Source: Schmidtea polychroa
Lineage: Eukaryota
Direction of reading: 5' to 3'
Length of the DNA: 64,000 bases
NCBI GenBank assembly: GCA_044892525.1
Contig: CM097887.1
Coordinates: forward strand, 81,074,397 to 81,138,396
Part shown: positions 3,632 to 40,379 of the stretch, piece after piece
How positions within the stretch are numbered: the stretch's first letter is position 1
Layout: each line of letters begins with the position of its first letter
Position numbers and translations under genes: made by a program
Notes under the pieces: generated by a model
Database searches by the model: none
Told to the model about the DNA's origin: nothing
What the model saw: only the letters and a program-made list of their open reading frames with translations

Positions 3632-3676
<45 letters not shown>

Positions 3677-15981: not shown

Positions 15982-16043
15982 TCATTTAAAATTATTTTAA
16001 TATATCATTGAAATATTTAATTCTCGGCTGAAAACACCTCACA
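15982..16043. repeat. 62-bp dispersed repeat, copy 1 (copy 2 at 35865-35926)
   Basis: 60/62 identical by eye; both copies stop at ...AAAACACCTCACA. Confidence 0.85.
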
Positions 16044-16447
16044 TAAGCAAACTTGAATTAATAGGGATAAGGAGAGAAAGAAATCTTTTATATAACCATA
16101 ATTTACTAACTTCTCATTTAAATTTTTTGTAATAATTAGCTTGCTATTATTAACTTGAATTATTTGACATTCACCTTCAAAAATCTCAAATACTCACATA
16201 CAAACCCATTTGTCATTTTATTTAATGATGTGAAATTTATTAAATACTATAGATTTATTATTTCTAATTTGTCTGGTAATTCTACCCATGAATCTATCGC
16301 TAATCGGTATAAGGTGGTTAGTAATCGATTAAATTGCAAAATCTTTGGTTTAGTTTGTTCATCAAGCAATTGGTGGGTTACTGGTGGTTGAATGATTAAG
16401 TGCTGTTACCAGCGTAACCCAAAATACAACATTAGAGTTTCCGCTTG

Positions 16448-16601
16448 GTACCCGTTGAGTAATCAACGTTGGTACTGTACCAAGGGTTGAGTACTCACAA
16501 AAAGTGAGTGCATCAAGGCACTATAATTGTCGAGTACTCCATGGGTTCACGGACTACCGATAGAAGGTGTGTGTCCGATTTCTCAGGTCCCTTATCAAAA
16601 T
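16448..16601. ncRNA. Conserved structured module, copy 1 (bulged stem-loop 16448-16475 plus SL-like segment 16556-16601)
   Basis: GTACC-CGTTGA-gtaa-TCAACG-TT-GGTAC; homologous to 25795-25823 and 61021-61049. Confidence 0.6.
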
Positions 16602-16670
16602 TGTTTTCCCAAAATCTCAACTCACTAATTCTCAATCACTCGATATTTGCGGACAATACACCTCATATAC

Positions 16671-18164
16671 TGCCCGACACTATTTTTAGCACAGTAAGAA
16701 ATTTCGTTACAAAATCATGAATAATGTAATAAATGAAATAAATTTTGTATGATTGTAATTAATATAGTAATACTTTTAATAATTATCACTACTTAGACAT
16801 ATATTATTTTTTGTTTAAATAATATTTGAATTCTTAGGTTTTTTAAAAATTAAAATACGACACAATTTTTAGCACACTTTAAAGATTTTTAAGTATTAAT
16901 AATTTTAACCTATTCTTTTATACTACTTTATATGATTTTAATGTTTATAATAATTTTAGAATTGATTATGAGATCTCCAGATTTAAAGAAAGTTGCTATA
17001 AAGATGAAACAGGAAGGTAACAGTTATGGTGCAATTGGCACCATTTTGGGCATGTCTAGATATGTTGTTAAGAATTTAGTCACCTACAAATATGTGTTAC
17101 ATAAACGCAAACGTGGAAACAGAAGAAAAATAAGTAAAGCAGACGCGTTATCCATCAAAAGAGAAACTGCACGGATAACGAGAGCACAGGAAAAAGTTAA
17201 TTCGCCCAAGATCAAGAGAAATTGTGGGCTAGCTGTATCAACAAGGACAGTACAAAGGTATATGCAGCTTGCTGGTATGAAATACGCAAAAAGTTATCAC
17301 GAAATCATCCTATCTAAGAAACACAAGGAAGAAAGAATGAAAGTGAATACAGAATGGATTTCGACCAATCACATTTGGGAGAATACTATATTCTCAGACA
17401 AAAAAAGGTTCACACTTAATGGACCAGATTGTTGGATGACATATATTCCGAAAACATCAAAATATGTGCGTAATATTCGGCAATGTCATGGAGGTGGAAT
17501 TATGGTCTGGCTGATGATCCTTCCTAACGGAATTCTATCTTTCCACATGATAACTGGCAAATTTAAGTCGACCGATTACATTACCCTGTTGAAGACCTTT
17601 GCTGTGCCAATAATGAAAGTTAACCTAAAGAGGAATTTTTACTTCCAGCAAGACAATTGCACAGTACACAAAGCACGGATTGTCCAAGATTATCTGAAAT
17701 CAAGTAATATATCAACGATTACATGGCCGTCACGAAGTCCAGACTTGAACATAGTTGAGGATGTCTGGAAGATGATTTCAGATATGGTTTATGACGGACC
17801 GCAGTTCTTAAACATAGCTGTTTTAGAAAAAAAAATTACGGATGTCATATCTCTTATCAACTGTACCAGGCGACATAAAATTTTGGATTTCTATGCATCA
17901 ATAAGATTGAGACTGTGTAAAGTTCTGAGTAATCACGGAAATTTGTATAATTGTTAAGTGTGCTAAAAATTGTGTCGTATTTTAATTTTTAAAAAACCTA
18001 AGAATTCAAATATTATTTAAACAAAAAATAATATATGTCTAAGTAGTGATAATTATTAAAAGTATTACTATATTAATTACAATCATACAAAATTTATTTC
18101 ATTTATTACATTATTCATGATTTTGTAACGAAATTTCTTACTGTGCTAAAAATAGTGTCGGGCA
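16671..18164 (+). mobile_element. Full-length Tc1 transposon with about 209-bp IR-DR TIRs
   Basis: 16671-16879 is the reverse complement of 17956-18164 with no mismatch seen. Each TIR carries outer and inner direct repeats CGACAC(T/A)ATTTTTAGCACA(G/C); TA-flanked. Confidence 0.95.
16932..17957 (+). CDS. Tc1 DD34E transposase (likely start ATG 16968)
   Basis: Uninterrupted ORF with N-terminal HTH, RG(N)RRK linker, IFSDKKRF, FQQDN, WPSRSPDLNIVEDVW; 34 residues between the second D and E. Confidence 0.95.
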   Translation: MILMFIIILELIMRSPDLKKVAIKMKQEGNSYGAIGTILGMSRYVVKNLVTYKYVLHKRKRGNRRKISKADALSIKRETARITRAQEKVNSPKIKRNCGLAVSTRTVQRYMQLAGMKYAKSYHEIILSKKHKEERMKVNTEWISTNHIWENTIFSDKKRFTLNGPDCWMTYIPKTSKYVRNIRQCHGGGIMVWLMILPNGILSFHMITGKFKSTDYITLLKTFAVPIMKVNLKRNFYFQQDNCTVHKARIVQDYLKSSNISTITWPSRSPDLNIVEDVWKMISDMVYDGPQFLNIAVLEKKITDVISLINCTRRHKILDFYASIRLRLCKVLSNHGNLYNC

Positions 18165-18259
18165 TACAACACTTGTTAACTAAATTGTTTTTACACCATA
18201 ACAATAAACAACCAAAAATTCAATGCGTATAGTCCAGATGACTGTTCGTATTGCTGGGA

Positions 18260-18691
18260 TTACGTGGGCGTCGCCCTTTCTTGTCGTTCATACTCGGCTA
18301 ATCTGGCCTTCTTTAGCTTTTCCCGGATGTTTCGTCCCAGCCGCTTCCTTTTGGGCTTATCTTTCGCGGCCGGAGGGTAAATTGCTGCCAACTCCACGGT
18401 CAACTGCCGGATTTGACTTATTGTGGCTCCGTGAACCGCTTGTTCATTGCGTTCGGTTTTTAACGCGCGGAGTTGGAGCTTCAAGGCCCAGATCTCCATC
18501 TGATCCTGTGCGGCTTGGGTCTGCAGTTGGAGGACCTGCGCCACCTTCTTTTTCATATCCTGGGGACTAAACCAGGTGCTTTCTAGTTCCCGGCACCGTC
18601 CCTTGAGTCTGTCCACTCGGACTCGGAGATCCTCGGCCTGTTTTTGTGCTTCTTCCCTGTCCTTCCGTAGGTTCTCCAATAGTTTGAACAC
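18260..18691 (-). CDS. Coiled-coil protein of the multi-ORF element, cluster A (ORF2)
   Basis: 143-codon GC-rich ORF with heptad pattern and basic C-terminal motif; homologous to the 26979-26178 frame (LESTWFSPQDMK vs LESTLFSPPLMK). Confidence 0.6.
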   Translation of the reverse strand: MFKLLENLRKDREEAQKQAEDLRVRVDRLKGRCRELESTWFSPQDMKKKVAQVLQLQTQAAQDQMEIWALKLQLRALKTERNEQAVHGATISQIRQLTVELAAIYPPAAKDKPKRKRLGRNIREKLKKARLAEYERQERATPT

Positions 18692-18928
18692 TAAAAGAAA
18701 TATTCTTAGATTATGTTATTACACCATGATATTCGCTTGATAAGATCGGTACTGGTTATAAAGACATTTTATCATTATTGAAGACCAACCCATTTTTACG
18801 ATAATTTATTAAAGAAGAAACTCATTCAAAGTAAAGTTCATCATCAAATCAAATCTTATTAATTCATTACAGAGGAGATTGGTTCAGAGTAAATTTCATG
18901 TCTATCGCGAGTTAGAATTGAGGACGAG

Positions 18929-19259
18929 TTAGGCCGGGTACTTGCGAGGCCTCCCCCTTTTTCGCGGGGTCGCCTCGGCCTCCCCCAGGTCCTCCAGAGT
19001 CTTTCCTTCTCGGATTGCCCGGATTTGCATGTCGAGTTTCTTCAGTCGCATCTGGGCCGCGTAAAAGGTCGTTTCCCGGCTCCTCCTTCACCCACGCCGG
19101 GGCATCTACTTCGAGGCCCTTCCGGATCACTCGATCTGTGCAGTCCAGGTCCCGTCCCTGACTCCACCGATGGATGTGGTACCAAATGTACCGGGTCCGG
19201 AGTCGGGTGATCGTCTGCCGATCGGCTTCTTCGATGCTGCTGCTGTCAGAGAAGATCAT
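18929..19259 (-). pseudogene. Small AT-hook protein, cluster A ORF1, with a 1-nt frameshift near 19075
   Basis: The +1 frame after ...WVKEEPG reads TTFYAAQMRLKKLDMQIRAIREGKTLEDLGEAEATPRKRGRPRKYPA*. Confidence 0.6.
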
Positions 19260-19784
19260 TTCTGCAAAGTAACAATCAGGTCACTTTATACAGATTATGT
19301 TACGAAGTTAAACACGGGATTTTGTTAATCCCTTTTCCCCCTTTTTAAAAATTCAACGTTAACGAAAAAGAAAATTCTTTATTTTCCAGCTAACACATAT
19401 AAGCCTAAGAACAATAGATTAAAATCACATTCATTATCAACTAGATTAAAAAGGAATTTCGTCGAAAATCCGTTTGTTTAAATTAATCATTTACATTCCA
19501 GAATTTTTTTACCACTAAGTGGTAATTTTAATTGCTATTTATAAATTTTAGTTTATACTTGAATAAAATGTAAAGTTTTTGGATCATCATTTTTAGGCCA
19601 CTAAATTCGGGCACGCTGGGGCGACAGGTGCTAGCAACGAACTAAGCTCTTCGTCTGCTTACCTTTCCTTCGGTTGTGCTCGTTATGAGTGGTTTGCTCT
19701 GCATACAAGTAATTTATTTAATTTGCTAATTTCTAAATTTCCAGGTGATCGATATCGGATTGGGATATCGATTTTTTGTAGTTA

Positions 19785-20230
19785 ACTGTAATAATAATAA
19801 TACCAATAATAATAACAATGAAATAACGATACTAATAATAATAATGATAATGATAATAATAATATTAATATTAATAATAGCAATGATAGTAATAATAATA
19901 AGAATAATAATAAATTTTAATAATGGTAATGATAATGGCAATAACAACAACACTAATAATAATAATAATAACAAGAATAATAATAAATTNNNNNNNNNNN
20001 NNNNNNNNNNNNNNNNNNNNNNNNNNNNNNNNNNNNNNNNNNNNNNNNNNNNNNNNNNNNNNNNNNNNNNNNNNNNNNNNNNNNNNNNNNNNNNNNNNNN
20101 NNNNNNNNNNNNNNNNNNNNNNNNNNNNNNNNNNNNNNNNNNNNNNNNNNNNNNNNNNNNNNNNNNNNNNNNNNAATGATAATGATAATGTTGATACTGC
20201 TAATAGTAATAACAAGGGAAATGATCAGGA
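19785..20230. repeat. Degenerate (AAT/GAT/AAC)n low-complexity tract around an assembly gap (N 19990-20174)
   Basis: Trinucleotide repeats on both sides of the gap. Confidence 0.9.
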
Positions 20231-22924
20231 TTAAGATAACTATAATTTTATAATCCCATGTTTTAGAATTATAAATTTATGTTTTATAATTTATACTTTG
20301 ATAATTTTCGATTTATAATTTTAAATTTTTCAATTTAGGGATTTACAATCTTGTAATTTATAATTATAATTTCATATTTTGAAATTTATATATTCGTATT
20401 TTATAAGTTATAATTGCTTAACTCATAATTTATAAGTTTATAATCTAAAATTTATACTTTTGTATTTTGTAATTCGCATTTTCATACTTTATAATTTGAA
20501 ATTTTTAGTCGACGGAATATACTTCTTACAACTTCCTTTCTATGATCAACATTGTTTTCCGCAGTACTTACAGATTTCCTGGTCCTATTTGTGAATTAAA
20601 ATTCAGAGTTCTAGCGCGCCTATCGCCTATCTGTAACCAATCCTCAGTTGATTTTTATACGAAAAATTGTTTACTACTATCTCTGATCAGACTTTCTCCA
20701 TTAACAATTTACATTTTCAGGATCGACGTGATTTGTACCTAGCTATCGTAATTATTTATAACTTATAGTTTTATAGTTAACAACAAGAATATTACAACTA
20801 AGAGCTTACACATTTACAAACATTTTAAAGTGGGAACTAGATTTAAAAATGTCTATCTTTACTCGGAATCAGCATATCAAGTTATACCTGTACGTATGCC
20901 GAGTATCTCTCTTATTTCTATTACCTTATCAAAGATCCTTACTACAAAATCTAGTTCGGCATATGTCTAAGTATAATTGAAATTACCATTATGGATCAAC
21001 TAGCTACATTAATGTGATTGTAGAATTGTGTAATTTTAGGTACGAGCTCTACTCAAATTAGAACCTTAGTGTAGAGTTATTGTTCAGGATTTTAAGTGTT
21101 GAGTTTAATTGTATATTACGCAATGAGTCGGGAAGAATATTGCTTCCATGGCCCCACTGTGACCACTTCCACAAACCTTAGTGTTGTGTGCTAAGTCAAC
21201 CATTTACGGCTGACCTTAAATAAATACGAAGAGTCAGACGGAGGGTTTCCTCGACCTAACTCCATGGCAGGACCATGAAGTAGTTCGACCTCCGGCTGAC
21301 CCGAACAAAAAGAGCCAAATAATAAGAGATTAATATAATAAAAATAATGCATGTTTGCATGTACTATGAGGATTTTAACAAATTGGATGCAGGACTGAAC
21401 AACGACGCAGTAATACCAGTACGCCGTTGAACATTCGTACATCAAAAAAAAAACATCAAATATGGAATTACTTTAATCTTAAATAAATCAAAACTACATG
21501 ATAATAAAAAATTCAATCATATATACTCACTATGTAGATTGGAAAAGTTTTTGTTCAAAATTTGGCATAAAATAATGATGATTCTGACTGAAACGTGTCA
21601 GTATATATACCTATTTTGTACACTTGTATGTATATATATTTATTTATGCATTAAAACAAACTCGAATTCTTTTTATTCCAGAATTTTCTATTTTGCGATT
21701 TTGATATTTTTAATGGCAATTTTTGTGCCATAATTTTTGTTTTTATTTTTAAATTTTTATTTTTTAATTATTTTTCGTTAATTTGACGTCCATGATGGAT
21801 TTGGAACGGTTCCAGAACATTCTATTTTACTTTTAATTTAATTTTTATTCTAACTGGTGTTTTATGAATTTCTTTTTAAGATTTATTATTTTTAATACTA
21901 ATTTATTTATTTTCTCTAACTTTTATTGTTCTAGCTGGCTTTTGTGATGGTCATCGCCATTTTAATGGAATGTTCTGGGTTTTTCTGGAATTTTTTTCGG
22001 TTTTTATCGTCTTTTAAGTTATTCGAGTCTGTTTTATGTTTATCTGTGTTTATTTAGTTATTTTCGAGTTCTATTTTGCATAACCTCTTGCTTTTGGTAT
22101 AATTTTATTTAATTTCTGTGTTTAGGTTTTTGTTGTTTTTTCCTTTAATTACTATTGTTTATTTGGTGTAGTTTTTAATATTTAACTATACTTTTTGCTT
22201 TTTGCATGCTGTGTACATTTCAGTCACAATTAGAAATTTGGGTCTAGAAGTCAGTTCTAGCCCAACACAATATTCGAGTTATCGGTTCCATAAATCGTAC
22301 CTTTCCACCAAGGTTTGCTGGTAGCTCGTTCGTGCATTTTTCTTATTTATTAATTTTCACTATTACTCCTTTGCATTTATAACTGTATAACGCTTCTCAA
22401 AAAATTCTCGAAAAAACGCCGCTTTCTGATATTAATATAGGTGCTACTAAATTTGGATTCGTAACTGCCATCGTCATCCGATTGATTGCCTAAACACAAA
22501 AGAATTTTTGTCCATATTCATACTCCAAATATTCACTTCATAAAACACTCTTTTAAATTGTAAATTATTCAATCACTTACTCATTTGAACTTGTATTAAT
22601 GATGGTGTAGAAATAATTTAACCTTGGAAATAATTTATATGTTAATTTTATTTACATTATTAAAACTAAATTAATGTCACTGAGAATCTTATCAATTGCC
22701 ATTTGGTGAAAGGTGGTTGTGTATATGAATTAGCATTTTTTTATTTAAATTATTTTATCATAAATTAATTTAAATGAAATTTTAATCAATTAAAATTAAA
22801 TATTCAAGATTTATACAAATCAATTTATTGTACGATTGTAGAATTTCTCTGAATGGATTACGACGAAATCCAGAACTTCTGAGAGCTAGTCCAAGCTGTT
22901 CCAATAGGATATATATGGTAACAT

Positions 22925-24724
22925 ATGGGATTCATTAGTGGCAGTGTAAGAATTTGTTTATTTAGCAATAGAATGCGACGAATAAAATTGAAAAAGATTT
23001 TACTTTTTTTCATTGTGCTCCTTGGAATATTTCTGATACAAAATATTTTATCGGATTGGAAAAATTTATCATCTGAAACAGATGAAGACCCCAGTGATTC
23101 TCAAGTTAAAATAGATTGGGCGAACTATGAGACAATCGATGAAGAGACAGTCAGAGAAGGCGCAGGAGAACAAGGAACAGGAGTGCATTTGACTGCGGAA
23201 GAAAATGAAAAGGCCAAACAACTCATGGAGATCAATGGGTTTAATGCTCTTGTGTCAGATAAAATATCAGTCCACCGTTCTGTTAAGGATCTACGAATAA
23301 ATAAATGCAAATGGTTGAAATATGACAATTTCCTCCCTCAGGCATCAATCATAATTCCATTTCACAATGAACATTGGTCGACTCTCTTGCGAACTGTCCA
23401 TTCGTTATTGTATAGATCTCCAGACAAATTAGTGAAAGAGATCATCCTTGTCGATGACAACAGCACGAAAGAGTTTCTTGGTGAAAAACTTGATCAATAT
23501 GTTTCAGAGCATTTTACAAAGGTTCGCATTTTGCGTACTGGTAAAAGAGAAGGTTTAATCAGAGCCAGATTAATTGGAGCAAATTATGCAAACGGCACTG
23601 TGCTAATATTTATCGATTCTCACTGCGAAGTGGGAATAAATTGGTTGCCCCCCTTGCTCCAGCCAATTAGAGAACATTACAAGACAGTTTCTTGCCCATT
23701 TATTGATGTAATTAGTTATAATGATTTCTCTTTGCGGCCTCAAGACGAAGGAGGCAGAGGAGCGTTTGATTGGAATTTTGATTACAAACGACTTCCTCGC
23801 TTACATACAGACAATGCTCACCCAGAAAAGCCATTTGATAGTCCAATTATGGCTGGAGGACTTTTTGCCATTAGTAAATTATGGTTCAATGAACTTGGAG
23901 GTTATGATGATGGGCTCGATGTTTGGGGAGGCGAGCAATATGAGTTATCCTTCAAAGTATGGATGTGTGGTGGTAAAATGGTCGATGTGCCATGCTCTAG
24001 AATCGGGCATGTGTATCGAAAGTTTAACCCTTTTGGAGTCAGGAGTTTAGGGAATTATATAGCTAGAAATCACAAACGAGTAGCAGAAGTGTGGATGGAT
24101 GATTGGAAGCAATATATTTATCAGAAACATCATAGATTATATTCATCATTGGATACAGGGGATTTAACTAAGCAGAAACAATTGAGAAAGACATTGAATT
24201 GCACCTCATTTGATTGGTTTATGAAACATATTGCCTATGATCTCTTACAGAAATATCCGATTCAAAAGACGCCAGTTGATTTATCACAAGGGAAGATCAA
24301 ATCAGAAATTAATCCTCATTTATGTTTTGATTTCAAATTCGGAAATTCGGGAGATCCATTTCAAATTTCCAATTGCTCAAATTCGGCAAGCACTGGTGGT
24401 GGTGATGAACAAAATTTGGCTTTTACATGGGAGATGGAAATCAAACCTCGTCAAAGAGATATCTGCCTGGATTACCCAAGAAGAGGTGAGACATTAATGC
24501 TTTTCAGTTGCCATGGATTTGGCGGAAATCAGCAATGGATATATAATCAGAGTTCTCATCAGATTGTACACGTTGTCAGTAAGAAATGCATTGACTACAG
24601 CTATAACCCAAGAAACTTTGATATATCCATTCGTAAATGCTCCCGGGAACAGTCTCAGAAATGGATCCTAGAAAATATGAACGCGGAGATTGCGAGTTAT
24701 CTGTGGAAAGAGCAAAATCTGTAA
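22925..24724 (+). CDS. GALNT10: Polypeptide N-acetylgalactosaminyltransferase, GALNT10/gly-10-like, 599 aa, single exon
   Basis: N-terminal TM; GT-A domain (SIIIPFHNE, IILVDDNS, REGLIRARL, DSH, MAGGLFAI, WGGEQYELSFKVWMCGG, PCSRIGHVYR); C-terminal ricin-B lectin with QxW repeats. Subfamily assignment by recalled motif similarity. Confidence 0.95.
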   Translation: MGFISGSVRICLFSNRMRRIKLKKILLFFIVLLGIFLIQNILSDWKNLSSETDEDPSDSQVKIDWANYETIDEETVREGAGEQGTGVHLTAEENEKAKQLMEINGFNALVSDKISVHRSVKDLRINKCKWLKYDNFLPQASIIIPFHNEHWSTLLRTVHSLLYRSPDKLVKEIILVDDNSTKEFLGEKLDQYVSEHFTKVRILRTGKREGLIRARLIGANYANGTVLIFIDSHCEVGINWLPPLLQPIREHYKTVSCPFIDVISYNDFSLRPQDEGGRGAFDWNFDYKRLPRLHTDNAHPEKPFDSPIMAGGLFAISKLWFNELGGYDDGLDVWGGEQYELSFKVWMCGGKMVDVPCSRIGHVYRKFNPFGVRSLGNYIARNHKRVAEVWMDDWKQYIYQKHHRLYSSLDTGDLTKQKQLRKTLNCTSFDWFMKHIAYDLLQKYPIQKTPVDLSQGKIKSEINPHLCFDFKFGNSGDPFQISNCSNSASTGGGDEQNLAFTWEMEIKPRQRDICLDYPRRGETLMLFSCHGFGGNQQWIYNQSSHQIVHVVSKKCIDYSYNPRNFDISIRKCSREQSQKWILENMNAEIASYLWKEQNL

Positions 24725-25794
24725 ATAGATGGGGATTTGATTGCCTTAAAAATATTTTATAAAAATAAATTGTTTCTATTTTATATAGTTTGGACCCATA
24801 ATAAAAACACAATAGGACATATAAAGATTCTGTGTTCACACCAATGCGCAATTAATAGAAGTCTTTATGACAATAAATTAGAGCTTCAACAATATAAATA
24901 AAGCTAAGCAATACAAATGTGTGCATTTGTGTGTCATTAACAAAATTGATATTAAATAGGAGTCTGCCAAAAATAAACATTTACGTGTCGAAAATACAAA
25001 ATGAGGTATATAATAAAATATAATTGATTGTGGGAAAAGACATTAATTAAATGTATCTTCACATAATGACATAATTTACTGATGGATTAATTATAAATTA
25101 ATGTCTAAAATAAAGTATAATGTCGGCTCAATAGCGATTTGGACTTAAATAGGACCAATTTACAGTACACACGTACGTGTCAACGGTGAGCACTATTAGC
25201 TCCAATTGTCTTCGTGAGGGAAGATTTGAGAAATGATGCAAAACAGAGAAAAATTTGACAATTTATTATTATCTTTTTTATTGCATCATGTATTTTTACT
25301 GTAATTATTCTTATAACGTAATTCTTATTTGGATTCGACTCAATATAGACAAAATATAATAAAAATCTCGATCCGACGCGTCGTGTTCAGCAATCAAAGA
25401 AATAAAACTCAAAACCCCAAAAATTATTTATTTCTTAATTGTTCAAATTAGTTATATTTTGTGGGTCGCAGGCATTTTACATTCTACCCTTTCCTGTCGT
25501 TTCCGACACAACTGTGTTTCTCAAACCGTGTGTCGCAAGACTTTTTCGCCAAAAAAGTTAGTAATAAAATAAATTTACAAAAACTTGATCAAGCTTTTTA
25601 CTATGAAAAAGTCGCTTCTGTGGATCAAAATTACAAAAAATTTCCCAAAGAAAGGAGTACACAAAACATTTAATTAGTATTGTTGGGCGCTTAGGGGTGT
25701 GTCGCGATGGTGGTTACTAGGGGTGACGATGGTTGTTCCATAGGGGACTCCTTCCTAGACGCCCATTATGATTTGTCACTATTCTCCCTCATGT

Positions 25795-25973
25795 GTACCC
25801 ATGATAACGAATCATGTTGGTACTGTACATATGGGTTGAGCCCTTGCGTTAGGACTACTCCTCCCGATATTCGCCATTCGGGTTCCTGAATGCCGTTAGA
25901 AGGACTTACATTGGTCTTATCAAGTACCTTTCGTCTCTACTATACATCTGGTTCAAGTGAGGTCGTTTCTAAT
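25795..25973. ncRNA. Conserved structured module, copy 2 (stem-loop 25795-25823; SL-like 25892-25921; HDV-like fold 25863-25973 on minus)
   Basis: GTACC-CATGAT-aacga-ATCATG-TT-GGTAC; about 85 bp alignable by eye with 61005-61085. Confidence 0.6.
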
Positions 25974-26177
25974 TTCCCTTTGTTTCGGAGCGACTGTCAA
26001 ATCAAGAAATGCTTTATGGTTATGAATCACGTAACAAAACACAATAACACTAGACATTCTACATGAAATTATATTAGATTCATTACAAATTAAACATTCA
26101 GCAATTAAGAACACTAATAAATCAATTCACACCATCACTGTTAATAAATACACTCCGATTCTGACACGAGCTGCGGT

Positions 26178-26979
26178 CTAATTCCCAAGCGTATATTTTT
26201 CAATTTCATACGAGCTCTCTTTCGTCGGTAGCATTTTGCCCTCGTCTATCATGGCGGCGATATCTGTCTCCAGGTATGGATCGTGAATGAGTACGGATGT
26301 GGTAGTCGGGATCATCCTATTTAAAGCAGTAGTTGATGCGACTAGCTTAGGCTGTGGTTGATTTTTCCTGGCCTCAGTGACGGCGAATAGAGACGCTTCC
26401 AATGCGGCGATCTCGTCTCGACATTTCTTTAATCGTTCCGCTCTAGTTAAGCGCTTTCACTTTCGGGATTTGATTGAACTGGAATGATATTCGGATTCAC
26501 TGGGGCGGCTAGTGGTATCGTAGTATCCGTGCGAGTAGGCTGCACTCGACTAGTTCCCGTGAAAATGATGTCGGATGTTATGACAGGAGATGTCTCTGAG
26601 CAATGACTGTGGCATCGTTAGGTGGAATAGATAATCATCTCATCTGTCCGAGGGTGAATTGGGAACACATTCAGCTTATCGATAAGCGGAAATTTGCTGA
26701 TACGGTGTTTTAATTCTGCCTCAGAATAAATTCGATGAAGGGCCTCAGACTAGGCCTTGATGATGAGGCAATAGGCAAGCTCTCGCGGCAGTGCTCGAGT
26801 CGTAAAATCTTCTTATTGGCTTACTTCATAAGTGGCGGGGAGAACAACGTGCTTTCTAGCGTGTTGATACGCTTCTTCAGAACCTCGATATAGTCGTTTA
26901 ATTGACGCAGATTTGCGTTTTTGTCGGCACACGAAAAGCAGGGTTTCGGGCCGCGTGATGGAAGGTTCGGTTCCGACAT
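26178..26979 (-). pseudogene. Decayed coiled-coil ORF of the multi-ORF element, cluster B
   Basis: MSEPNLPSRGPKPCFSCADKNANLRQLNDYIEVLKKRINTLESTLFSPPLMK*ANKKILRLE... then frameshifts to KRLTRAERLKKCRDEIAALEASL...; homologous to 18691-18260. Confidence 0.6.
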
Positions 26980-27404
26980 AAGCTAAAAATTCATAAAAAA
27001 CGTCATGGTGTGTTATCAAACTGCTTTGACCAATGAACAATCGAGGCTTTCTCAGTCGTGACACTACTCCCCGTTCGCATACATTCGATCAGCTATTCCC
27101 CGTAAATTCTACATTTTATTACTTCAAACCGACGGGACCTTTACTTGTCGTATCTATCCAAACCAATCATAACATTCTACAACATCCGGAGCGAGATTTG
27201 ATCACGGACTGCATGTGTCTACTTTACCTTTCATCCTACGGATGATTCCCCAAAATTGGTAACCTTCTTAGAGCGGGGTCTAACTATGTTTGACCATGCG
27301 GAATGGCATGGAATAAATAAAACCAAGAAAACTAATTTTAACGCAACCATAAGTTTTCCCATCTACAAGTTAGGTTCTACAAGATTACTCATTGTTAGAC
27401 CAAA

Positions 27405-27912
27405 ATAAATCAATTTTACTGGAGGGAAAAACTTGCATGGGCTGGTGATCGCATTCTCACCCTTTTGTTTGACTTAAACATAGAAGTTTTACCGCACTTC
27501 ACCCATGAAACGATATTTTTATAATTCGACTTATCATCTAATTTATTTACCATTCACTAAGTTTAACATCAACTACTATACATTTCAACTGGATTTAAGA
27601 TTAATTACGCTGTGACATTAATTATGTATGGAATAAACTAGACTTAAGGTGTATATAAAGGTGTACATAAATCAATTTTACTGGAGGGAAAAACTTGCAT
27701 GGGCTGGTGATCGCATTCTCACCCTTTTGTTTGACTTAAACATAGAAGTTTTACCGCACTTCACCTATGAAACGATATTTTTATAATTCGACTTATCATC
27801 TAATTTATTTACCATTCACTAAGTTTAACATCAACTACTATACATTTCAACTGGATTTAAGATTAATTACGCTGTGACATTAATTATGTATGGAATAAAC
27901 TAGACTTAAGGT
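27405..27912. repeat. Near-perfect 246-bp tandem direct duplication (27405-27650 and 27667-27912)
   Basis: Period 262 bp; one mismatch seen (CACCCATG/CACCTATG); 16-bp spacer. Confidence 0.92.
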
Positions 27913-28866
27913 AATTTCAAGATCAATTAGATGATGACAGCGATAAACATTGTGACTAGACTTGGAAATTAAGCAACGGCGGCACTAATTATTGTTTATA
28001 TTCAACGCTGATACACCAAACACCACTGAGATACATTCTCTATAGTGGTGGTTGGCGTGTAAAACAATTTCTCTCACCAATTTACTGTGAATCATCTTCA
28101 TCAATTTACATTCATTTACTGAATTACTTACAATAATGAATTTTTTTTGGAAATTTATTTTAGCCATTTTAGAAATGGCTTTCAGGTAAGATATTTAATT
28201 TTAAGTAAAGTTTAAATCTTGAATTTTGATCGATATGCGATCATTATTCAAGTTCTTAAATTTTACTTTTAGTCAACATTATAATTATAAATTATTTTTA
28301 ATTAATTTTTAGGCATTTTTGATATTTTATGACAAGTATTTTGGAATATTTTCGAAAAAAATGTGAGTTAGATATGTTTTTAATTATAATTAAATAAATG
28401 AATTACCAAAAATATTTACTTTTCTAAAACATTTTGGGAAAAATCACCGAATAATAAAAATAAAATAATTTTTGTAATTTTTTTTTCTGAGCTCAATATG
28501 AGGAGCTTCTTTCAGGAAAGCAAATATGGATTGAAAAGACATTGAACAAAATTCATCTGCTCTTGAAATTTCATTAAAAATATATTTTTAAAAATTTTCA
28601 GCGATCTTTTTTTATCCAAAAATTGTCTAAAATAGAATTATTATAGAAATGTATCTCAGCGGTGCATTTCGATGAATCAAAAGTTTGTATGTGTTTTTTA
28701 GTGTGTGTTGTGTTTGTGTGCAGTTTATAATTTTTCTTCCACTTTTCAGATTTCTATAATATAGGATGTATCTGACTGCACTCTAAATGAGAACATCAAC
28801 GTGAAATCAGAGTAAGTATGTATGTTTCTATAATGTAAGATTATTGATTTTTTTGTTATATTATAG

Positions 28867-29654
28867 GAAATGCATCTGAATGGCGTTTGGTGTATTCAAT
28901 CTCTACAAATTGTTTACAATATCTGACGATTATGAAGTGGCAGTTCTCTAAAATTGTTCACCGGTCGATGTTCAACAGTGCATCCTGTTTACTCTCATTC
29001 GTGACGATGAGTGACGGCGACTATTTCTCTCGGCCAATTTTGGATGTGACAAAGCCTACGAAAATTTCCAAGAATAAACCGGATGTTGTGTCAATTCCCT
29101 CAACGGTGGTGATAATCGGGAATGATCGTCAAAAAATGGAAATCTTATTGTTTATGCTACGTTTTCTGATTCTACATGATATCCTGGGTAGACTGTTAAT
29201 ACTTGCATCGGCTAACCGCGGAAAATTGATGGATTTTAATCGAATACATCGACTTATCGGCAAGTGTTGCAAATCGTTCTAGTCAACATCCTCTCAGAAA
29301 ATACGAGTCTGGACCAATTTCTCGACGATATCAAGTGTTACCGTTGGATTTATTGCTTCTTTGCAAAGATGTTCGCATGTAGTGAGTTGCTTATCAAACC
29401 TACCCAACGAAAGTAGTTGCCTGATGGAACGGATCTGGCATATACATTCATCAATCTATGCACATTACTGATCTAAAGAACCGATGCTCCCTAATTATCA
29501 TTTCCAAATACAAACAAATTTTAAACTTCCCACTTACAATCGCACCTCCGGCGTGCCTATATGCAAAGACAATCTGATTACCACCGGCACAAGTTCCAGC
29601 GACATCCAAATGTATTCCCAAACGGGTTTCGCCACACATATTAATGATAAATAA
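28867..29654 (+). CDS. Coding-like frame with two in-frame stops (29280, 29469); weak resemblance to FNIP/Lst4 proteins
   Basis: TTATAG acceptor at 28866; segments of 137, 62 and 60 codons in one frame; AATAAA signals after TAA 29654; STVVIIGNDRQKMEILLFMLRFLI and SSSDIQMYSQTGFATH recall FNIP motifs. Confidence 0.4.
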
Positions 29655-29739
29655 ATTAAAAATAAATTAAAAATAAATTCATGATTATAAAAATTTCGAT
29701 ACGCAATTTTCGGAAACTAATTTTATTCTAAAGTGCCTC

Positions 29740-30200
29740 ATGCCTTGTTGGTAGCATATTCGCCTTTTCTCGATCAATCCTGCCTGAGCGGCTTGTCTAT
29801 CCGATATCTAATAGTATCAACACATCTTCCCCTTATGACACAGATTCCACAGAACATTGCTTAGCCTGACTCGCTACGAAATATCTTTGACTTCCCCATT
29901 TACCGGGGTTTTCCTCTCTCTCACCTAAACCTCACTTCCTCCTTCTCTCCCAGGACTAACTCCTCATGTTTCTGACCATCATCTGTTGCTATGCTTCATC
30001 AGATCGTTCTCGATAAAATTGATTCTAATTCCTACCAGCAATTCTCGTTCCGATATTTCCTGTCTCAGGAAAGTGATCAATCGTTTCTCAACGGAGTCAC
30101 TTGCTCATCGATTCCTAACATTCTCCAGCCATTGCTTCAACATCTCAGATGCATTCATCATTCATAGATGTTGCCCAGAACACATTCAAATCATTCTTTT
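29740..30200 (-). pseudogene. Ty3/Gypsy gag-protease remnant
   Basis: Stop-ridden E/R-rich frame followed by GEDVLILLDIG (cf. retropepsin LLDTG). Confidence 0.45.
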
Positions 30201-31371
30201 CTGAAATGGCATTACTAAATCGCAAAATCATCGACAATTAATTTAATTTGCTAAGTTTAAATAAATGATGTAAAGAGAAAAAAGAGAGAACATTTGTTAA
30301 TATTTTAACCTATTTAAATGTTACATAGTAAAATAATTGCATATACATAAAATAAAAATAAATCAAAAATTTACATTCTTGCTAATTCTTATTTAACGAG
30401 TCCAAAATTCTCGAGTCGAGTACTATGCTGTGATTTCCAATTGACAATAAGGTTCGGAATTTATATTTAATGTTGAAATTGTCCCTAATGATTGACCGGA
30501 ATTAGAATTTTAACGATTGACCTGAATAAAATTTTTAAGAATTGAGGGAATCAGTCAAGTCGCTTTCTTATATACTAATTTTCGTCCAATCAGGATCCAG
30601 CTATTGTGTAAAGTTGTGTTTTTTCTCTTTTTTATTCTTTTTAACCCTTTTCTTAAGGTTGTTTATTTCTTTTATTTTGTAATTTATTAAATATTTTAAT
30701 TTTTCTTATTTTCCTCTTTCTTTTGTTGGATCCTGTTAGTTATTCGGTTTGTGATTTTGTATTCTATTCTTTTTTGTTTTTCTTAATTATCGTTTTATGT
30801 TGATTTTTTTCTGATATTTTGCTTTGCCTATCAGTCATGATTGTGTGTTCTGTTTGTTTAAGAGTTATTTGATGTCTATTTCGTTTTGGTGATTTTATTT
30901 ATTATTTTATTTTATTTATTATTTCTCCCTTTCCTTATTCTTCATTTTCCTTAATACTTGACTGATTAGCCTCAATTTGATGCTATACACAAGGTTTTAT
31001 TTAGTTATTTTACAGAAAAATTCAGGTTTTCCGGTTTTTAGCCCAACAAATCACTCCGGGGCCCGTTAAAATTGCGTCCCGCAATTTACATGCAAAACAA
31101 TATTCCTATACCTCCCACCATTTTTATAACTAAAACATAAAAAAATTTTTATTATAAGATAACGTGCAAATACAAGACAAGCAGGGGTCACTTAAGGTGA
31201 ACAGTTTTTTTATACAACCAATTCAAGTTCGTTCAGTTTGAATGTTAACCGCGTCAAACAAAATTGTCTAAAATATTGTTATGCTGGATTTTTGTTGGAT
31301 TTCGCAATCGTCTCTGGAGCTTCTGTTTGGGCGGTTTGGCACTATTGTTGAAGTGCTGAGTTGGATTGTGG

Positions 31372-33136
31372 CTAGGGTGTCCTTGTTTGTCCAAGTGCCT
31401 GAGGTTGGTTGGATTTCGGAGATTTACTGAATCGAACTGTTTTCTCTATTTTTTCAAATTTCTGAGAACATCTTATCTTCGATATTGGAGTGGCTTGGTG
31501 ATTTTTTTGCCACATTCGGTATGACTTATATGATTTCCAGGTGGCTAATATGAAGATGACGAGGGTTTCAATGATTATAATGTAGAGTAGGATACGGCTG
31601 TCTTTCGTTTCTTTTCGATGTATATCCTCTTTTTGGGATTGTTGAGTGACTTGTTGTTGAAGGAGGGATTCTAGTTGCTCGATTCTCTGGGTTTGGAAAA
31701 TGAGCTGCGCTTGGATTATCTGACAGACGGGTTAGGAAAAGTTTATTTTAACGGTTTATAACATTACAGGCCAATTAAGGCATAAGTAGAGAACTTCTTC
31801 AACCCTTCATTATAAAAAGATTTTACATAGCTCTCATAGGGCGTCGAGTCTAAGACTCGAGCGTCAAACGTTGTTTAACAATTTTCCATAGGCAGTTGAT
31901 GGAGGCCCATGTGTGTCGGAGTGTGCCAGATATGATCATGGGGTAGGGAGCCAAAAGCATCAGTGATATCGAGCCAGATGATGTGGAGTTCCGTTTTATT
32001 GCGGACAGAGAAGTCTTTGATGAGGTGTAGAGTTAGGTTATGTTCAGCGCTGCCATCCGGGGTGCCAATGGCTTTTTGGTTAGTGGTAAGTAGATTGGCT
32101 TGCCTGATCCAGGATAGGATGCGATGATTAAGGACAGAGGAAAAGATACGGTATGCAGTGTTCATGGCTCGTTTCATGTTTCCCTTGTTTAAGTATCAGT
32201 TTGGTCCGAAAGGTCTTCCAGCTTGCAGGGGGGGGGCATATCGAGGTGGAAAGTATGCTGTTACAGATAGCAAGAAGGGGTTCAATATCGAGGCATATCT
32301 TTTTCCAGTCAGGTAAGGTAATCTTGTCGATGCCTGGGGCAGTGTTGTCCGGTGAGGCGATAGTGGAGGAAGGTCATCAATGTCAATACGGATAGAAGAT
32401 GTATTTTCCGGAAATGAAGGAAACGATAAATCAGTGAGGTCGGATATGGGTGTATAGCCCCGAAGAGAAGAAGTATATTAGCCTTTGTGGGCCTATGTAG
32501 AGATACGGCCGCCCCAATGATTTTCCCAATCTCGTCTTTGGGTTTCGTGCGGAATCTGGTACGTTTAATGCATAGGAGCTCATTTTCCGATTTCAATTTT
32601 TTGTGCGCGGCGTCTGCTGGTTTTATTGTCTTGTATCTGTCTGGGTTGACGTTGCCATTCATTCGTTCAATCTCGTTAAGGGCTGATTGGACGTATATTA
32701 GGTTATGGGAAAGTTGTTCAGTGAGGTTTATGAGGAATATGTGGTATTTTCTGATATTACAAATAGGTATCCTATTATAGATGAAAGTTGAAATGATCTG
32801 CCTGAAAGTTGAGCATGTGGCCTAAGTCAGGAGTGGTAATGGGAGTGTGTGAGTTAAGGCATTTCAGAATGTGATATATGTATTGTGCAGACTCAAGTGG
32901 TGTCAAGCATCGTGGGTATTCAAGATTCGTTAGTGACAGGGTGACTTGGCTGACGATATTTTCCAGCACTGTTTCTGGATATTGTTGTAATAGCTTCTCA
33001 CGTCTACGATGGTGGTTAGTTGATTTAGATTGTGTAGATGATTCTCTGGGATCTTCGAGATTTTATGGGATGGTTGCTTCATAGGTAAACTATTTGCGAT
33101 GTGCTTCATTCCTATGAGGATTGCTCCGTACCACAT
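31372..33136 (-). pseudogene. Type I membrane (env-like) glycoprotein gene of cluster C, frameshifted and interrupted by an RT fragment
   Basis: Signal-like N-terminus MWYGAILIGMKHIANS; NLT sequon; Q-rich coiled coil IEQLESLLQQQ; TM ILLYIIIIETLVIFILATW (31593-31537); basic cytoplasmic tail to TAG 31372. Confidence 0.5.
31900..32600 (-). mobile_element. Internal fragment of an RLE-type non-LTR retrotransposon RT (R2/NeSL/Utopia group)
   Basis: DNTAPGIDKI, SWKTFRTKLILKQG, YRIFSSVLNHRIL, NQKAIGTPDGSAEHNLTL, LHIIWLDITDAFGSLPH (RT domains 0-3); no YADD, RLE or 3' end. Confidence 0.85.
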
Positions 33137-33239
33137 ACTAGTATACATATATTTTATTTACAATTTATTTACACCGTCTTTATTTATCTTTAGTTATCGG
33201 AGGGGTTTCCCTTATTAGCTTTCTCGGACAACCACATCA

Positions 33240-35786
33240 ATTTGGTTTTCCGCTTTTATTATTGGTTCCTTAGTTCTGGCATTATCCTCAATTGCTTATC
33301 CTTTTCATTCATTTGTTGGTTTAGTGTTTCTATCTTTTTCTTAAATGTTTTTATTTCTTACTTGGCTTTGATTAAACCTTTTTCGTTCATTTGTTGTAGG
33401 AAGTCATTTTCTCGTCCTCTCTTTCGTCCTCTTCTTTGTCGTCTATTTCTTGATATTTTTCACTCATTTTTCTCATTACTTCACATTCTCTTTTTTTTCT
33501 GGTGTAATTGATCTTGTAATTTTTTCAGGTTTTTCTGATATTTCCTTGCTTCCGTTTTCCAGTAATCGTTAATTACTTCTTCTGCGTTTGTGCTGGCTCT
33601 TTCTTGCCAAAGTTCTTCTGCGATTTTTTCCCAGTTTCTTCCTTGTTTTCTTTGTTCATGGAGCCACTCATTTTCCTCTTCTACTTCCTTCACTTCCTCC
33701 AATAATTTGTATTCTCTCTTTAATACTTTCACCATTCTTCGGTTATCTCTCCATCCCTTTATTAGTCTTGCATTCTCTTGTCTTTCCTCTTGTAATTTCT
33801 TTTTGATTATTTTCTTTCTTTCTACTATTTCCACTTCAATTTCTCTTTTCTCTAGCTCTATCGTTGGTGATTTTATTAATCTCTCGGTTTCTGAGTTCAT
33901 TTTCTATAATATTTACAATGGTTATTAATGCGCTATAGAGCGAATTATACATATACAATAATTTTCGGATTACATTTCTTGATTTATACAGAGGGTTACA
34001 GTCCCTTTACTACTATTATCGTACTATTAATTTTTTTTTGGGATATAGTTCCCAAATTTTATAGATTTTCTTATATTTTTACGTTTTTATCGATTCTACT
34101 TTATACGAATGTTTCCTCTTGACCCACATATCCTTCGTCACTTTCCACTGACGATTCTAAATGTATGGCAATTGGATCGTATGGTACATAGTACCTTGGG
34201 AGTTGTGCTCTTAGTTCATGCACTTCATCTCTTAGGGCTATGTAGATATTTAACTCTTTGTCGATCAGATATTTGAGGTATCTGGCTTCCTCATCTCTTA
34301 CCTCTATCTGTCTTTCCAACTCCTTTACTTTCTCATTCCCATTTCATTTTCCAGCTCTTTTTCCAAAGTTTTTATATTTTCGTCATACATCTTTCGTTCA
34401 TCGTTCATCTTTTTGTTCTTACCGGCCACCAATATGTTTCTTTGCTCTATTACCCCTCTGTGCCCGTTATTGTCTCTTTCGAGTTCCCTGACTTTATTGT
34501 TGAGCTCCGCGATTTTTCCTGCTTGCTGGGTTATTACTTCTTCCTTCAGTCTATTTTCCTGATCTTTCAATGCCAATTTAACTGGCAAATATCGCTCAAA
34601 TTCAATGGCTTTAGTATGCCATGTCTGACTACGTGCAGCGATCTTTCACAATCTCTTTAACTCTTCTCTTTGATTTAAAGTTTCCTCCCATTTTTCTTGC
34701 TCGTCAGCTAATCCAAATTTCTGCGGTAATTCTCGCATCTCTTCCTGTGTTTCTTAGCTTTCTCTTTTCCATCTTTTGGCCTGTCTCAGGATTTCGTTTG
34801 TTTTCTTTTCTTTTTTGTTTCTTTGTTTCTTCCATTTTTTATTATCGTCTTTTAACCTTTTCCTCGATTCGTTCACTAGCTGTTTTAAATAGTGGCTATG
34901 TGCCTATTGTCTTGTAGACTCTAATGCTGACCATTGGGCTGCTCTTTTATAGGTTTCGACCTCGGTTCTTAAATTCTGGTTCAGCCTTTGGAATTGTTTG
35001 CTCTCCCATTTTCGGGTTTCTTCTATTTCTACCCTCACCCTATTCATATACTGGTGGGTCACCTTTTCCCACTGTCTTTTAATATTTTCTGATATTGTGT
35101 GTTGGATTGTCGGGTTTCTGTTTTCTGTGACTCTTTCTTGGGTCATTCTACAAAATTTATACGATATTAATTTAGTTGGGTTTGTTTTGTTTATTTAATT
35201 GCATCGTCATTGTTTTCTGAATTTTCCGCGTTATTTTAATTTTTTGTGGCATCGGTTTTTCTACATTATTATATATAACTTTGTTCGGGTATATACACTA
35301 ATATATACAATTTTTTTATATACAATTTAATCCTCCCACTTTTATTCTGTTTGTCCAATCCCTTCCTTCTTGAATGACACCTTTATGTACACTGTGTCTT
35401 CTTTCACCTTCCTTTCTAGTTTCCACTGGGTAATGAAGTTGGTGCCCCTGTTGCTGATCCTTCTTGTTCTACGGGTCTTTTGTAACATACGTGGTTTCCT
35501 GTCGCTCTGAAACATTCCTCGTGGATGGTTTTGTCATTCAACATGCTAATGTCGACTTTGGCCCAGTAGGAAAAAAATTGAAAAGTGAGTTTCTTTTCCC
35601 GTTCCATTTGCGTCTGGGTAAGCCTTTAACCTCATCTTGTAACCGTTCTTCGATGAATAAAATGCTGGACTGAGTACTGTTATGTCTTTCCCGTCTTTGG
35701 CCCGTTGTATTTTTTCTTATATATATAAGGTTCGCAACTCGTAGATGTGACCAAGGAATCTGACGCATTTTTGAAAGACATTGCAT
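33240..35786 (-). pseudogene. Array of decayed co-oriented ORFs, mostly E/K/R coiled-coil (cluster C): starts near 35780, 35146 and 33900
   Basis: ORFs 35146-34904, 34588-34325, 34319-34101 and 33900-33481 chain through stops and frameshifts; strongly purine-rich coding strand. Confidence 0.6.
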
Positions 35787-35864
35787 TTATTTACGTTGAT
35801 CTGTAAATTATGGCGGTTCAAAATGTCAAGAACCGTGTGCAAAACTTTGGTGTGGGTTTTACGG

Positions 35865-35926
35865 TCATTTAAAATTATTTTAATAAATCATTGAAATATT
35901 TAATTCTCAGCTGAAAACACCTCACA
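35865..35926. repeat. 62-bp dispersed repeat, copy 2
   Basis: See 15982-16043. Confidence 0.85.
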
Positions 35927-35955
35927 GTCATATTGTAATTTGTTTGAGTGAAGAT

Positions 35956-36600
35956 TCACAAAAGTATAGCCTGGAAGGCATTTTTGTGCATGTAATCCGA
36001 AAAGATTGTGGTTAAAGCAATTGAAGTCATTCTTAAGGTTGACGGAGGATTTGTCCAAGAACATGCGATGTGACTTGTTCTAGCGTCGGATGAAAAATCT
36101 TTGTGATATAAACAAGTCAGGGGTGGAAAAGAGTTCGATTTGTTAGTTCTTTGGGCGTATGAAGTATATCGAGAGGTATTAATTATCGCGTTGACCGCTT
36201 TTGTCAAGGAAGATATCTGTTCTTGCAGTGAAAGATCAGAAACGGATGATGGAAGTGGGTGTGTTTCGAATAAGTTGTCTGGTGAGCAGTTTATCTGCAA
36301 TTTTTGCCAGGTGGAAGAGTCATCTAAATCGGCGACGAGGAGTGAGGTTTGAACGTGATGTTGGAGCGCTGTTAAAAATAGTGGCATAGGAGAGCAGTGT
36401 TCTTCGATAGTTCAGTATGAGCGTTTTCGAGTACTCGTACAAGTTGGCCTAAAAATGATGATAGGGCATGTTCTGAGTATGGAACGGGTTTTGATAGTAT
36501 GTCGATTGCTGAAGCGCTTTTGGGTGAATATTTTTTTGTATCACTCGTATGGACTTTCTGAGTCTAATGCGTCAGCTATTTGTGAACCTAATTCATACAT
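35956..36600 (-). pseudogene. Ty3/Gypsy gag remnant
   Basis: LFLTALQHHVQTSL, EQISSLTKAVNAI and CLYHKDFSSDARTSHIACSW (cf. the CxYHxxFGxxARxCxxPCSW gag motif). Confidence 0.7.
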
Positions 36601-39284: not shown

Positions 39285-40138
39285 CTTTATTCATTAGGTT
39301 CTTAAAAGTGACAGGAATTGTGAAACCTTGCAATTTTAAATCTTTCTTCATTTCATGATCTTCAATGACATTTTGATTGAAAAATACGTTAAGATCATCA
39401 TTTTCAAGTTGCTTCCATTGATAGAAAAGCCTTGATACATATTCCTATGTGCTCTTCGGGAGTTTGAGTAAGCTCGAAAAATTTGTCAACTTATTCACAT
39501 GTGTCAGCTCTGTGCCCCAAAACTAGTATACAAGTCTAATCGGAATTGATCAGATAAACAGTCGTAATAAAATAAGCTGATAAGGAAAATTTGCCCGAAC
39601 AGCATTACTTGCAACCAATTCACGCCACAGTAACGAACAAATGCGTAGTAAGTAGGTGCAAAAGTTATGCAAAGCAAAATATATATAAGTAATCTCGCTA
39701 TTTTTGTCCCGAGTATTGTATAGTTACCTGCATTTTACTTTTATCCCCTTTTCAAAGGGTGGCACAAGAAATAAAAGATTTCATCAGATGGGAAATTTTG
39801 AAAAAAATACATTTTTGTACTTTTTGTTTTTGTATTAAAATATTTTTGTCTTTTGAATGGATGTTTTGTAGAGCAAAAGATGTTTTTTCTTGTATACAAA
39901 TCAAATATTCTTGTGGCATTGCTGTTAAATGTAATTATTGTACCTCAATGGTAAGTTTACAGGTAAGTATCAATGTGGTAAAAAACAAAATAATTTTATA
40001 GATAATAATAACTCAGGGTTATTATTTATAATTTAAGATAAACTTTTTTAATTTTGCAATTAATCAAGCACTAAACTCACTAGATGTTAGATTCGAACAA
40101 CTTAGTAACTATAGTAACTATTTCCAATTATTATATAT

Positions 40139-40271
40139 ATTAAAAAGCTTGACTATGAATCAGCAAATATATCGATGTTTTTGGTATTCACGAATTTTCG
40201 GCGCTGCCTTTTTTTAGTGAATTTCTAAAAAACATTGATATATTTACTGATTCATAGTCAAGCTTTTTAAT
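40139..40271. mobile_element. Palindromic (foldback) MITE with about 50-bp arms; a related half-copy lies near 4527-4565
   Basis: ATTAAAAAGCTTGACTATGAATCAG... / ...CTGATTCATAGTCAAGCTTTTTAAT. Confidence 0.75.
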
Positions 40272-40379
40272 AAATACAATGTCAAGGGAAAAGAAATCAG
40301 TGATGAAATTTGAAAAAAAAGTTCTTATAATTATTATATAATATATACGATTTAAAAAGCATATCTAAGGAAACTCTTT

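Follow-up and report, generated by a model that had tools for sequence, protein, structure and literature searches.

The Burro/GYPSM1 elements are more than 30 kb long with their long terminal repeats (LTRs), have an internal region of up to about 25 kb and, in Burro1, encode a gag-CCHC polyprotein of 4,873 amino acids, according to the portion of the source cited here (PMC6431247). In that account env lies between gag and the protease (PR) and has homology to mononegavirus-type fusion proteins; MATH/TRAF, BIR, ankyrin and RING domains, Smc-like coiled coils and, found by HHpred, BCL2-like, SUMO-like and dUTPase-like segments are also described (PMC6431247). The same source covers the Terminons of bdelloid rotifers, giant elements with many co-oriented open reading frames (ORFs), a Penelope-class reverse transcriptase (RT) and hammerhead ribozymes (PMC6431247). 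GAG-ENV-POL errantiviruses with an HSV/gB-type env also have env between gag and pol in Platyhelminthes elements, and the main text of that study, in the part drawn on here, has no occurrence of Burro, planarian, giant or accessory (PMC13524379). Here we examined a window of 64,000 nucleotides from Schmidtea polychroa (GCA_044892525.1, contig CM097887.1, positions 81,074,397 to 81,138,396), in which an earlier note had marked three clusters of ORFs (A, B and C) as an unrecognised family resembling a virus or a giant retroelement. We consider it very probable that the clusters are remnants of giant Ty3/Gypsy retrotransposons that carry env and are laid out like Burro, namely a solo LTR and the broken tail left by another element, and that the LTRs carry selected genes, likely spliced regulators. 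The identity of the clusters as remnants of giant Ty3/Gypsy elements, taken by itself, we regard as close to certain.

GC content is 0.41-0.44 at ~18-19.5, 25.5-27.5 and 31.5-33 kb of the window against ~0.2-0.35 in the surroundings, which bears out the three GC-enriched islands of the earlier note, and inspection of the ORFs confirmed that those of all three clusters are co-oriented on the minus strand. First-look genome searches returned 1609, 959 and 824 candidates for A, B and C, respectively, of which 40 were scored for each cluster, and the best other copies among those scored were 96% (A), 88% (B) and 77-82% (C) identical. Since each cluster is a dispersed, high-copy repeat, these are not single-copy host genes, a possibility that the note had left standing.

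Full-length relatives elsewhere in the genome reveal the kind of element. Four sites with whole-element spacing were fetched, and all four proved to be A-lineage copies 34-35 kb long, whose LTRs are 100.0% identical and which are flanked by 4-bp target-site duplications (TSDs). Three of the four contain a single frame of 4,791 codons (stop to stop), in which Pfam recognised zf-CCHC, MATH, Monjiviricetes_fusion, PR, RT, RNase H (RH), integrase (IN) and Ank; an ORF before this giant frame has RING, and ORFs after it have TRAF-MATH and BIR-RING. The env between gag and PR matched PF24664 (E 4e-72 and 2e-68), gag was recognised by zf-CCHC plus a weak Retrotrans_gag match, and long, charged, helical-looking ORFs of the relatives had no Pfam family at E 0.01. 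For the C/B lineage, a walk upstream from C-like copies led to an element whose LTRs are 4.5 kb long and 99.6-99.7% identical to each other; between them lie 22 kb with the same gag-env-pol core, and Pfam identified MATH, RING and Ank in this copy and no BIR. The sequence of the primer-binding site (PBS) complements the 3' end of the tRNA-Pro(UGG) genes in this genome. The relatives therefore have the features that define Ty3/Gypsy elements, that is, paired TG...CA LTRs with a short TSD, a tRNA PBS and the PR-RT-RH-IN order, the last of which is missing from the window itself. The linked RT and IN, terminal repeats and TSDs for which the note had advised searching were all found in these copies. 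The A and C/B lineages are 73% identical in pol, and A and C/B are separate insertions of sister lineages.

Co-oriented coiled-coil ORFs and, in the relatives, a Monjiviricetes-type fusion domain would also suit a giant Penelope element of the Terminon kind or an endogenous virus of non-retroviral origin, two origins which the note had entertained. Terminons, as far as the cited portion describes them, resemble the present elements in size and co-oriented ORFs, but the relatives here have true LTRs, a PBS, RNase H and integrase, and an Rfam scan of positions 14000-38000 (E<=1) gave only three hits, all miRNA-like and all in one palindrome, with no hammerhead or other ribozyme family. Neither polB, nor a helicase (SF3 included), nor a capsid family was present among the ORFs scanned from full-length copies. 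We judge either of these origins extremely improbable.

The whole of cluster A (16371..22267, minus strand) is one solo LTR from a giant Ty3/Gypsy element of Burro type, with ends TGTTGGG...CCCACCA and a length of ~4.4 kb when a Tc1/mariner insertion is discounted. Its 4-bp TSD, CAAT, lies at 16367-16370 and 22268-22271; the TG...CA termini and the short duplication mark an insertion of the integrase type. When 20-kb regions around ten A copies were compared, sharp common ends appeared at window positions 22267 and 16371, and nine of ten other A copies had the same ends with a 4-bp TSD, the tenth being 5'-truncated. The unit is thus wider than the 16.3-19.7 kb given in the note. The Tc1/mariner element (16671..18164, plus strand) has 209-bp identical terminal inverted repeats (TIRs) and a 354-codon DDE ORF (16893-17957) with Pfam matches to DDE_3 and HTH_Tnp_Tc3_2, the transposase frame being open and intact-looking. 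It occurs in the window's A copy only; it is missing from 10 other A copies, and an empty TA site was seen. It is not part of the LTR and, with TIRs 100% identical, is a very young copy. The target into which A inserted is a decayed fusion-glycoprotein (env) fragment (22268..22480, minus strand; tblastn match to env in a full-length copy, E 4e-8), which apparently resumes on the other side of A at ~16170-16370, as judged by eye and without a score; cluster A broke up this older fragment. Because the LTRs of the full-length copies match window A at only 73-95% identity by segment, we assign A to a sister subfamily, of which it is a solo LTR. It would have arisen by LTR-LTR recombination and been hit later by the Tc1 insertion. 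The 5' half of the LTR of one full-length copy (L161) is 91% identical to window A, compared with 84-85% in its three siblings, which suggests recombination between LTR subfamilies.

The ten best A copies all lack internal sequence, and the units finish in short, imperfect inverted termini flanked by a 4-bp TSD. These properties would also fit non-autonomous elements of 4.3-4.4 kb with TG...CA ends, either Ginger-like DNA transposons with short TIRs or units mobilised in trans, in place of solo LTRs. However, the same kind of unit is found as identical paired LTRs around gag-env-pol, four of the first 30 A-type starts follow the internal 3' end, and LTR-end+PBS junctions occur 408 times as an exact pattern, a count common to sister subfamilies. 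A-type LTR starts number 513 exact 24-mer occurrences in the genome, and controls with reversed patterns gave 0 in these exact-pattern counts. We therefore hold the non-autonomous explanation to be very improbable and retain that of solo LTRs. The copy searches also brought to light several arrays. The giant element's primer tRNA, tRNA-Pro(UGG), forms a tandem array at about 130.90-130.95 Mb of C1 with a 475-bp period, its pattern being found 1,577 times in the genome; C1:186485113-186500382 is a tandem array of internal end plus LTR start with a 1,524-bp period, and C1:39424162-39471594 is one of LTR end plus PBS with a 15.8-kb period. Polinton-like ORFs (polB-, integrase-, ATPase- and capsid-like by eye) lie beside or around Burro-type copies at L087-L089, L100 and L172.

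Clusters B and C belong together as the 3' end of a second, older element, with the 3' accessory genes in C and the 3' LTR in B. The LTR (25681..31048, minus strand; ends TGTTGGG...CCCAACA, no TSD match) again extends beyond the span of the note, 25.7-27.3 kb, and includes a 262-bp tandem duplication (27405-27912) and an insertion (about 28014-28892). A palindrome within this insertion (28208-28262), likely a miniature inverted-repeat transposable element (MITE), was the source of the sole Rfam hits, which were below gathering score. Of three further B-type copies examined, two are solo LTRs flanked by TSDs. Directly before the LTR lies a conserved internal 3' end, at the polypurine-tract position (31049..31091, minus strand), nearly identical in the C/B-lineage copy. 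Upstream of it, all on the minus strand, are a transmembrane accessory ORF (31375..33151, in two pieces, 33151-32963 and 31728-31375; 41-42% identity), a decayed coiled-coil accessory ORF of 234 amino acids in relatives (33211..33903; 60% identity, E 8e-67), another of ~350 amino acids in relatives (34104..35152; 58-68% identity, E 6e-110), and the MATH C-terminal part of a RING-TRAF-MATH accessory ORF (35345..35716; 38%, E 1e-21; Pfam MATH in the full-length orthologue), 5' of which the element is truncated. The transmembrane ORF is split by a decayed non-LTR RT fragment (31734..32958, minus strand; RVT_1, E 1.6e-5), presumably R2/NeSL-like from its motifs and missing in related copies. The note had stated that no cluster carries its own transposase or complete RT; A does contain a transposase, that of Tc1, and C an RT fragment.

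The four C ORFs of the window and the B ORF are orthologues of the 3' accessory and LTR ORFs of the C/B-lineage copy, in the same order, and in another genome copy C passes unbroken into a B-type LTR without window 31734-32958. Internal-end+LTR junctions of the C/B type have 105 exact-pattern occurrences in the genome. The order of the ORFs, the internal-end junction and the unbroken copy lead us to regard C and B as the 3' end of a single element, truncated and frameshifted, which would have lost its 5' part and gained the fragment of a long interspersed nuclear element (LINE). The note had been least sure of C, which is tied to B by direct continuity in related copies. Its idea that the three clusters derive from the accessory region of a giant retroelement such as Burro is correct for C, but A and B are LTRs with genes of their own; likewise, of the clusters that it expected to co-occur in one element, C and B do so and A stands apart. 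The 62-bp repeat by which it had connected A and C does not link them because it lies outside both clusters and is the end of a separate, unrelated repeat of ~340 bp; that link was rejected.

How closely do these elements correspond to Burro? The length exceeds 30 kb in all four A-lineage copies, at 34-35 kb, with a 22-kb internal region in the C/B-lineage copy, and the polyprotein is similar in size (4,873 amino acids in Burro1, 4,791 codons here). The gag with CCHC knuckles, the position of env between gag and PR, the PR-RT-RH-IN order and ankyrin are shared with Burro as presented in the portion cited, as probably are the coiled-coil accessory ORFs (PMC6431247). From this layout a host among the planarian-type flatworms would be inferred. 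MATH/TRAF, BIR, ankyrin and RING are all four present in the A lineage, and the C/B-lineage copy differs in having no BIR and in that MATH is confined to an accessory ORF located downstream of pol. The errantiviruses have the same position of env, between gag and pol, in the part of that study cited (PMC13524379). The family is thus not an unrecognised one, since its layout is that of Burro/GYPSM1, and the DNA belongs to a kind of element already on record, an outcome that the note had itself foreseen in part. We consider membership of the known Burro kind very likely. Certain points tell against our interpretation, the first being that this membership was assigned by architecture and not by sequence comparison with GYPSM1/Burro1-4. 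Pfam gave no BCL2, SUMO or dUTPase domain in the full-length copies, no HHpred-class search having been made. The 10 best matches to the window's A subfamily include no full-length copy, and a master element for A itself was not found. Of 12 B-type LTR starts that were fetched, not one follows the internal end. Remnants of a giant LTR element that is abundant and already described are an ordinary genome feature for such a host.

The LTRs themselves contain protein genes. A-type LTRs have two, ORF1 (121 amino acids, C-terminal PRKRGRPRK) and ORF2 (about 145-160 amino acids), and B-type LTRs a single ORF of ~250 amino acids. In the window, ORF1 (18929..19259, minus strand) is predicted to be helical and ends in an AT-hook motif followed by AATAAA. 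The AT-hook microprotein of the note is therefore real, PRKRGRPRK being present, and the window ORF is broken and frameshifted by a 35-nt deletion near 19060. ORF2 (18260..18691, minus strand) is a coiled coil with a TWFSP motif and a basic KRKR tail; its homology runs from an AG|TG acceptor-like site, at which there is no ATG. The B LTR ORF (26181..26979, minus strand) is of the same TWFSP family, ~250 amino acids long in open copies and frameshifted in the window, and is 67%, 37% and 34% identical, in three pieces, to the LTR ORF of the full-length copy. The protein homology that the note saw between A and B was upheld by a profile-profile comparison of ORF2 with the B ORF (probability 96%, E 2e-9, 57 columns around TWFSP).

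Changes in the LTR ORFs fall mostly at third codon positions. The ratio of nonsynonymous to synonymous divergence (dN/dS) between subfamilies is 0.06-0.31 in 17 of 21 pairs for ORF1 and 0.06-0.15 in 11 of 21 for ORF2, the rest being saturated at synonymous sites, as are all 10 pairs of the B-type ORF. By these ratios ORF1 and ORF2 are under purifying selection between subfamilies, and LTR-internal genes selected across many subfamilies are unusual for Ty3/Gypsy elements. On the other side, the dN/dS pairs are non-independent and were obtained by a simple counting method, and in a young solo subfamily the corresponding polymorphism ratio (pN/pS) is 0.45 for ORF2 (8 of 10 copies) and 0.75 for ORF1 (9 of 10 copies). 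The higher ratio in young solos fits decay after insertion, with selection acting on replicating elements.

Searches for homologues yielded little. The B-type LTR ORF found none among 808 candidates and the ORF1 alignment none among 7,991, and no Pfam family or fold could be assigned to the LTR ORFs in the searches run. Against 1.84 billion representatives the ORF2/B profile gave three matches, one a true relative on short contigs (P0001, E 2e-26) and the other two generic coiled coils. The best score in the Atlas search was 0.84, a lead only. The two AlphaFold models of the LTR ORFs consist of long helices only (pTM 0.34 and 0.32), and a viral fold search with the ORF1 model had no match at E<=0.001. 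By sequence comparison, then, the LTR ORFs have no convincing homologue beyond the one relative. Section 7 of PMC6431247 makes no mention of LTR ORFs, splice-acceptor cassettes or an LTR-end hairpin. We found no paper describing ORFs inside Burro LTRs, a search that did not extend to Grohme 2018, Repbase, figures or supplements, which may already show them.

The note had also reported a common RNA module downstream of A and B, and this is present at the LTR 3' end as a hairpin of stem, AA bulge and stem, 65-115 nt before the LTR end. It is conserved in A (16448..16475, minus strand), and the B copy (25795..25823, minus strand) has compensatory changes relative to A. Over 16 copies 97.5% of cells are paired and three pairs have two-sided changes, against 30-42% in slid controls, and none of 500 shuffles reached the covariation score; only the inner stem is informative because the motif used to select the rows covers the outer stem. 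A ribozyme was considered for this module and rejected by the Rfam scan, which found no ribozyme family. A third copy of the hairpin occurs at 61006-61052 on the plus strand and, being in the opposite orientation, is probably a remnant of another Burro-type LTR.

The arrangement of the ORFs suggests splicing. The acceptor-ATG layout described in the note was confirmed, as YAG stands just before the ATG in four of five window ORFs printed. In two full-length copies YAG lies <=4 nt before the first or second ATG of 12 of 15 small ORFs, compared with 111 of 775 (14%) of all ATGs, a background that allowing two Mets roughly doubles; the count excludes two gag rows (no Met in the first 70 codons) and four rows of a third, decayed copy, of which two fit. 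Many of the small ORFs are followed by AATAAA, and the conservation of ORF2 begins exactly at the AG. A short leader exon is predicted at 19654..19698 (minus strand) with the donor AAG|GTAAG (GT at 19662-19661); this strong donor, upstream of ORF1, is present in six of nine copies aligned in that block. The small ORFs would be expressed by cis-splicing of the short LTR leader onto one acceptor-ATG cassette at a time, with alternative poly(A) sites. We think this sequence-based model probable, with the reservations that ORF2 has no ATG at its acceptor and that no upstream coding exon was identified; no conserved phase-1 donor inside ORF1 that would fuse it to ORF2 was found by eye. On the LTR and leader, 28, 19 and 11 of 30 bins are covered by contigs from runs X1, X6 and X7, whose RNA origin is a guess, and all 30 by those from X5; there were no GT..AG joints among those listed for them. 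The alignment of one X1 contig starts at the predicted ORF2 acceptor, which subfamily divergence explains equally well, so that it is no evidence either way.

Flatworm operons can be resolved by spliced-leader trans-splicing, and the flatworm spliced leader ends in ATG. With the identity of the element unchanged, the accessory and LTR ORFs might thus be released from a polycistronic RNA by this route, and acceptor-ATG cassettes, often followed by AATAAA, fit it as well as they fit cis-splicing. The conserved strong cis donor in the LTR upstream of ORF1 argues against trans-splicing, as does the fact that a leader ending in ATG would leave ORF2 out of frame at AG|TG. We find trans-splicing unlikely and continue to favour the cis-spliced leader.

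Protein genes inside LTRs are familiar from HIV nef and MMTV sag, and complex retroviruses possess the Tat/TAR and Rev/RRE switches. The present LTRs are similar in that their protein genes are likely reached by splicing and a small basic protein lies near a bulged hairpin; they differ in that the carrier is a Ty3/Gypsy element, in that one or two ORFs lie wholly within a 4-5 kb LTR, and in that no sequence or fold homology was found. The AT-hook would let ORF1 bind AT-rich DNA, and ORF2 would form oligomers via the coiled coil, bind nucleic acid via the basic tail and act on the element's RNA. Any specific regulatory role for these ORFs is tentative, and we lean somewhat against it. The LTR ORFs nonetheless offer concrete candidates for the means by which an element of 35 kb expresses as many as nine small ORFs and regulates its RNA. 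A bolder proposal, which we think doubtful, would make Burro LTRs self-contained cassettes of promoter, leader exon, two selected genes and structured RNA. Hundreds of solo LTRs would then remain sources of two proteins, a chromatin protein with an AT-hook and a basic coiled-coil protein, the second working on the bulged hairpin as a switch of the Tat/Rev type. If true, a regulatory circuit like that of complex retroviruses would have evolved independently in Ty3/Gypsy and could act in trans on host stem cells. As far as the cited part of the study reports, Burro1 is PIWI-silenced and tissue-specifically de-repressed in a planarian (PMC8532177), and the LTR ORFs are therefore testable in an animal tractable by RNA interference.

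Several other features lie in the window. Between the env fragment and the B LTR is an intronless, intact 600-codon polypeptide GalNAc-transferase ORF (22922-24724, plus strand; Glycos_transf_2 and Ricin_B lectin), possibly a retrocopy. The truncated C is capped by the remnant of a different, small Gypsy element (35740-36411, minus strand) with gag-like and RT C-terminal motifs by eye and no Pfam hit; the 62-bp end of the dispersed ~340-bp repeat lies within it, and the same repeat is also found at 15707-16043. A long palindrome at 40130-40280 is likely a MITE, a decayed hAT transposase lies at 53713-54701 (plus strand), and an ordinary Gypsy PR-RT-IN remnant at 56404-58191 (plus strand). Exons of host genes, all on the minus strand, were recognised for a KDEL receptor (3241-4002), a C4 zinc-finger nuclear receptor (43072-44582) and aldolase (61830-62162).

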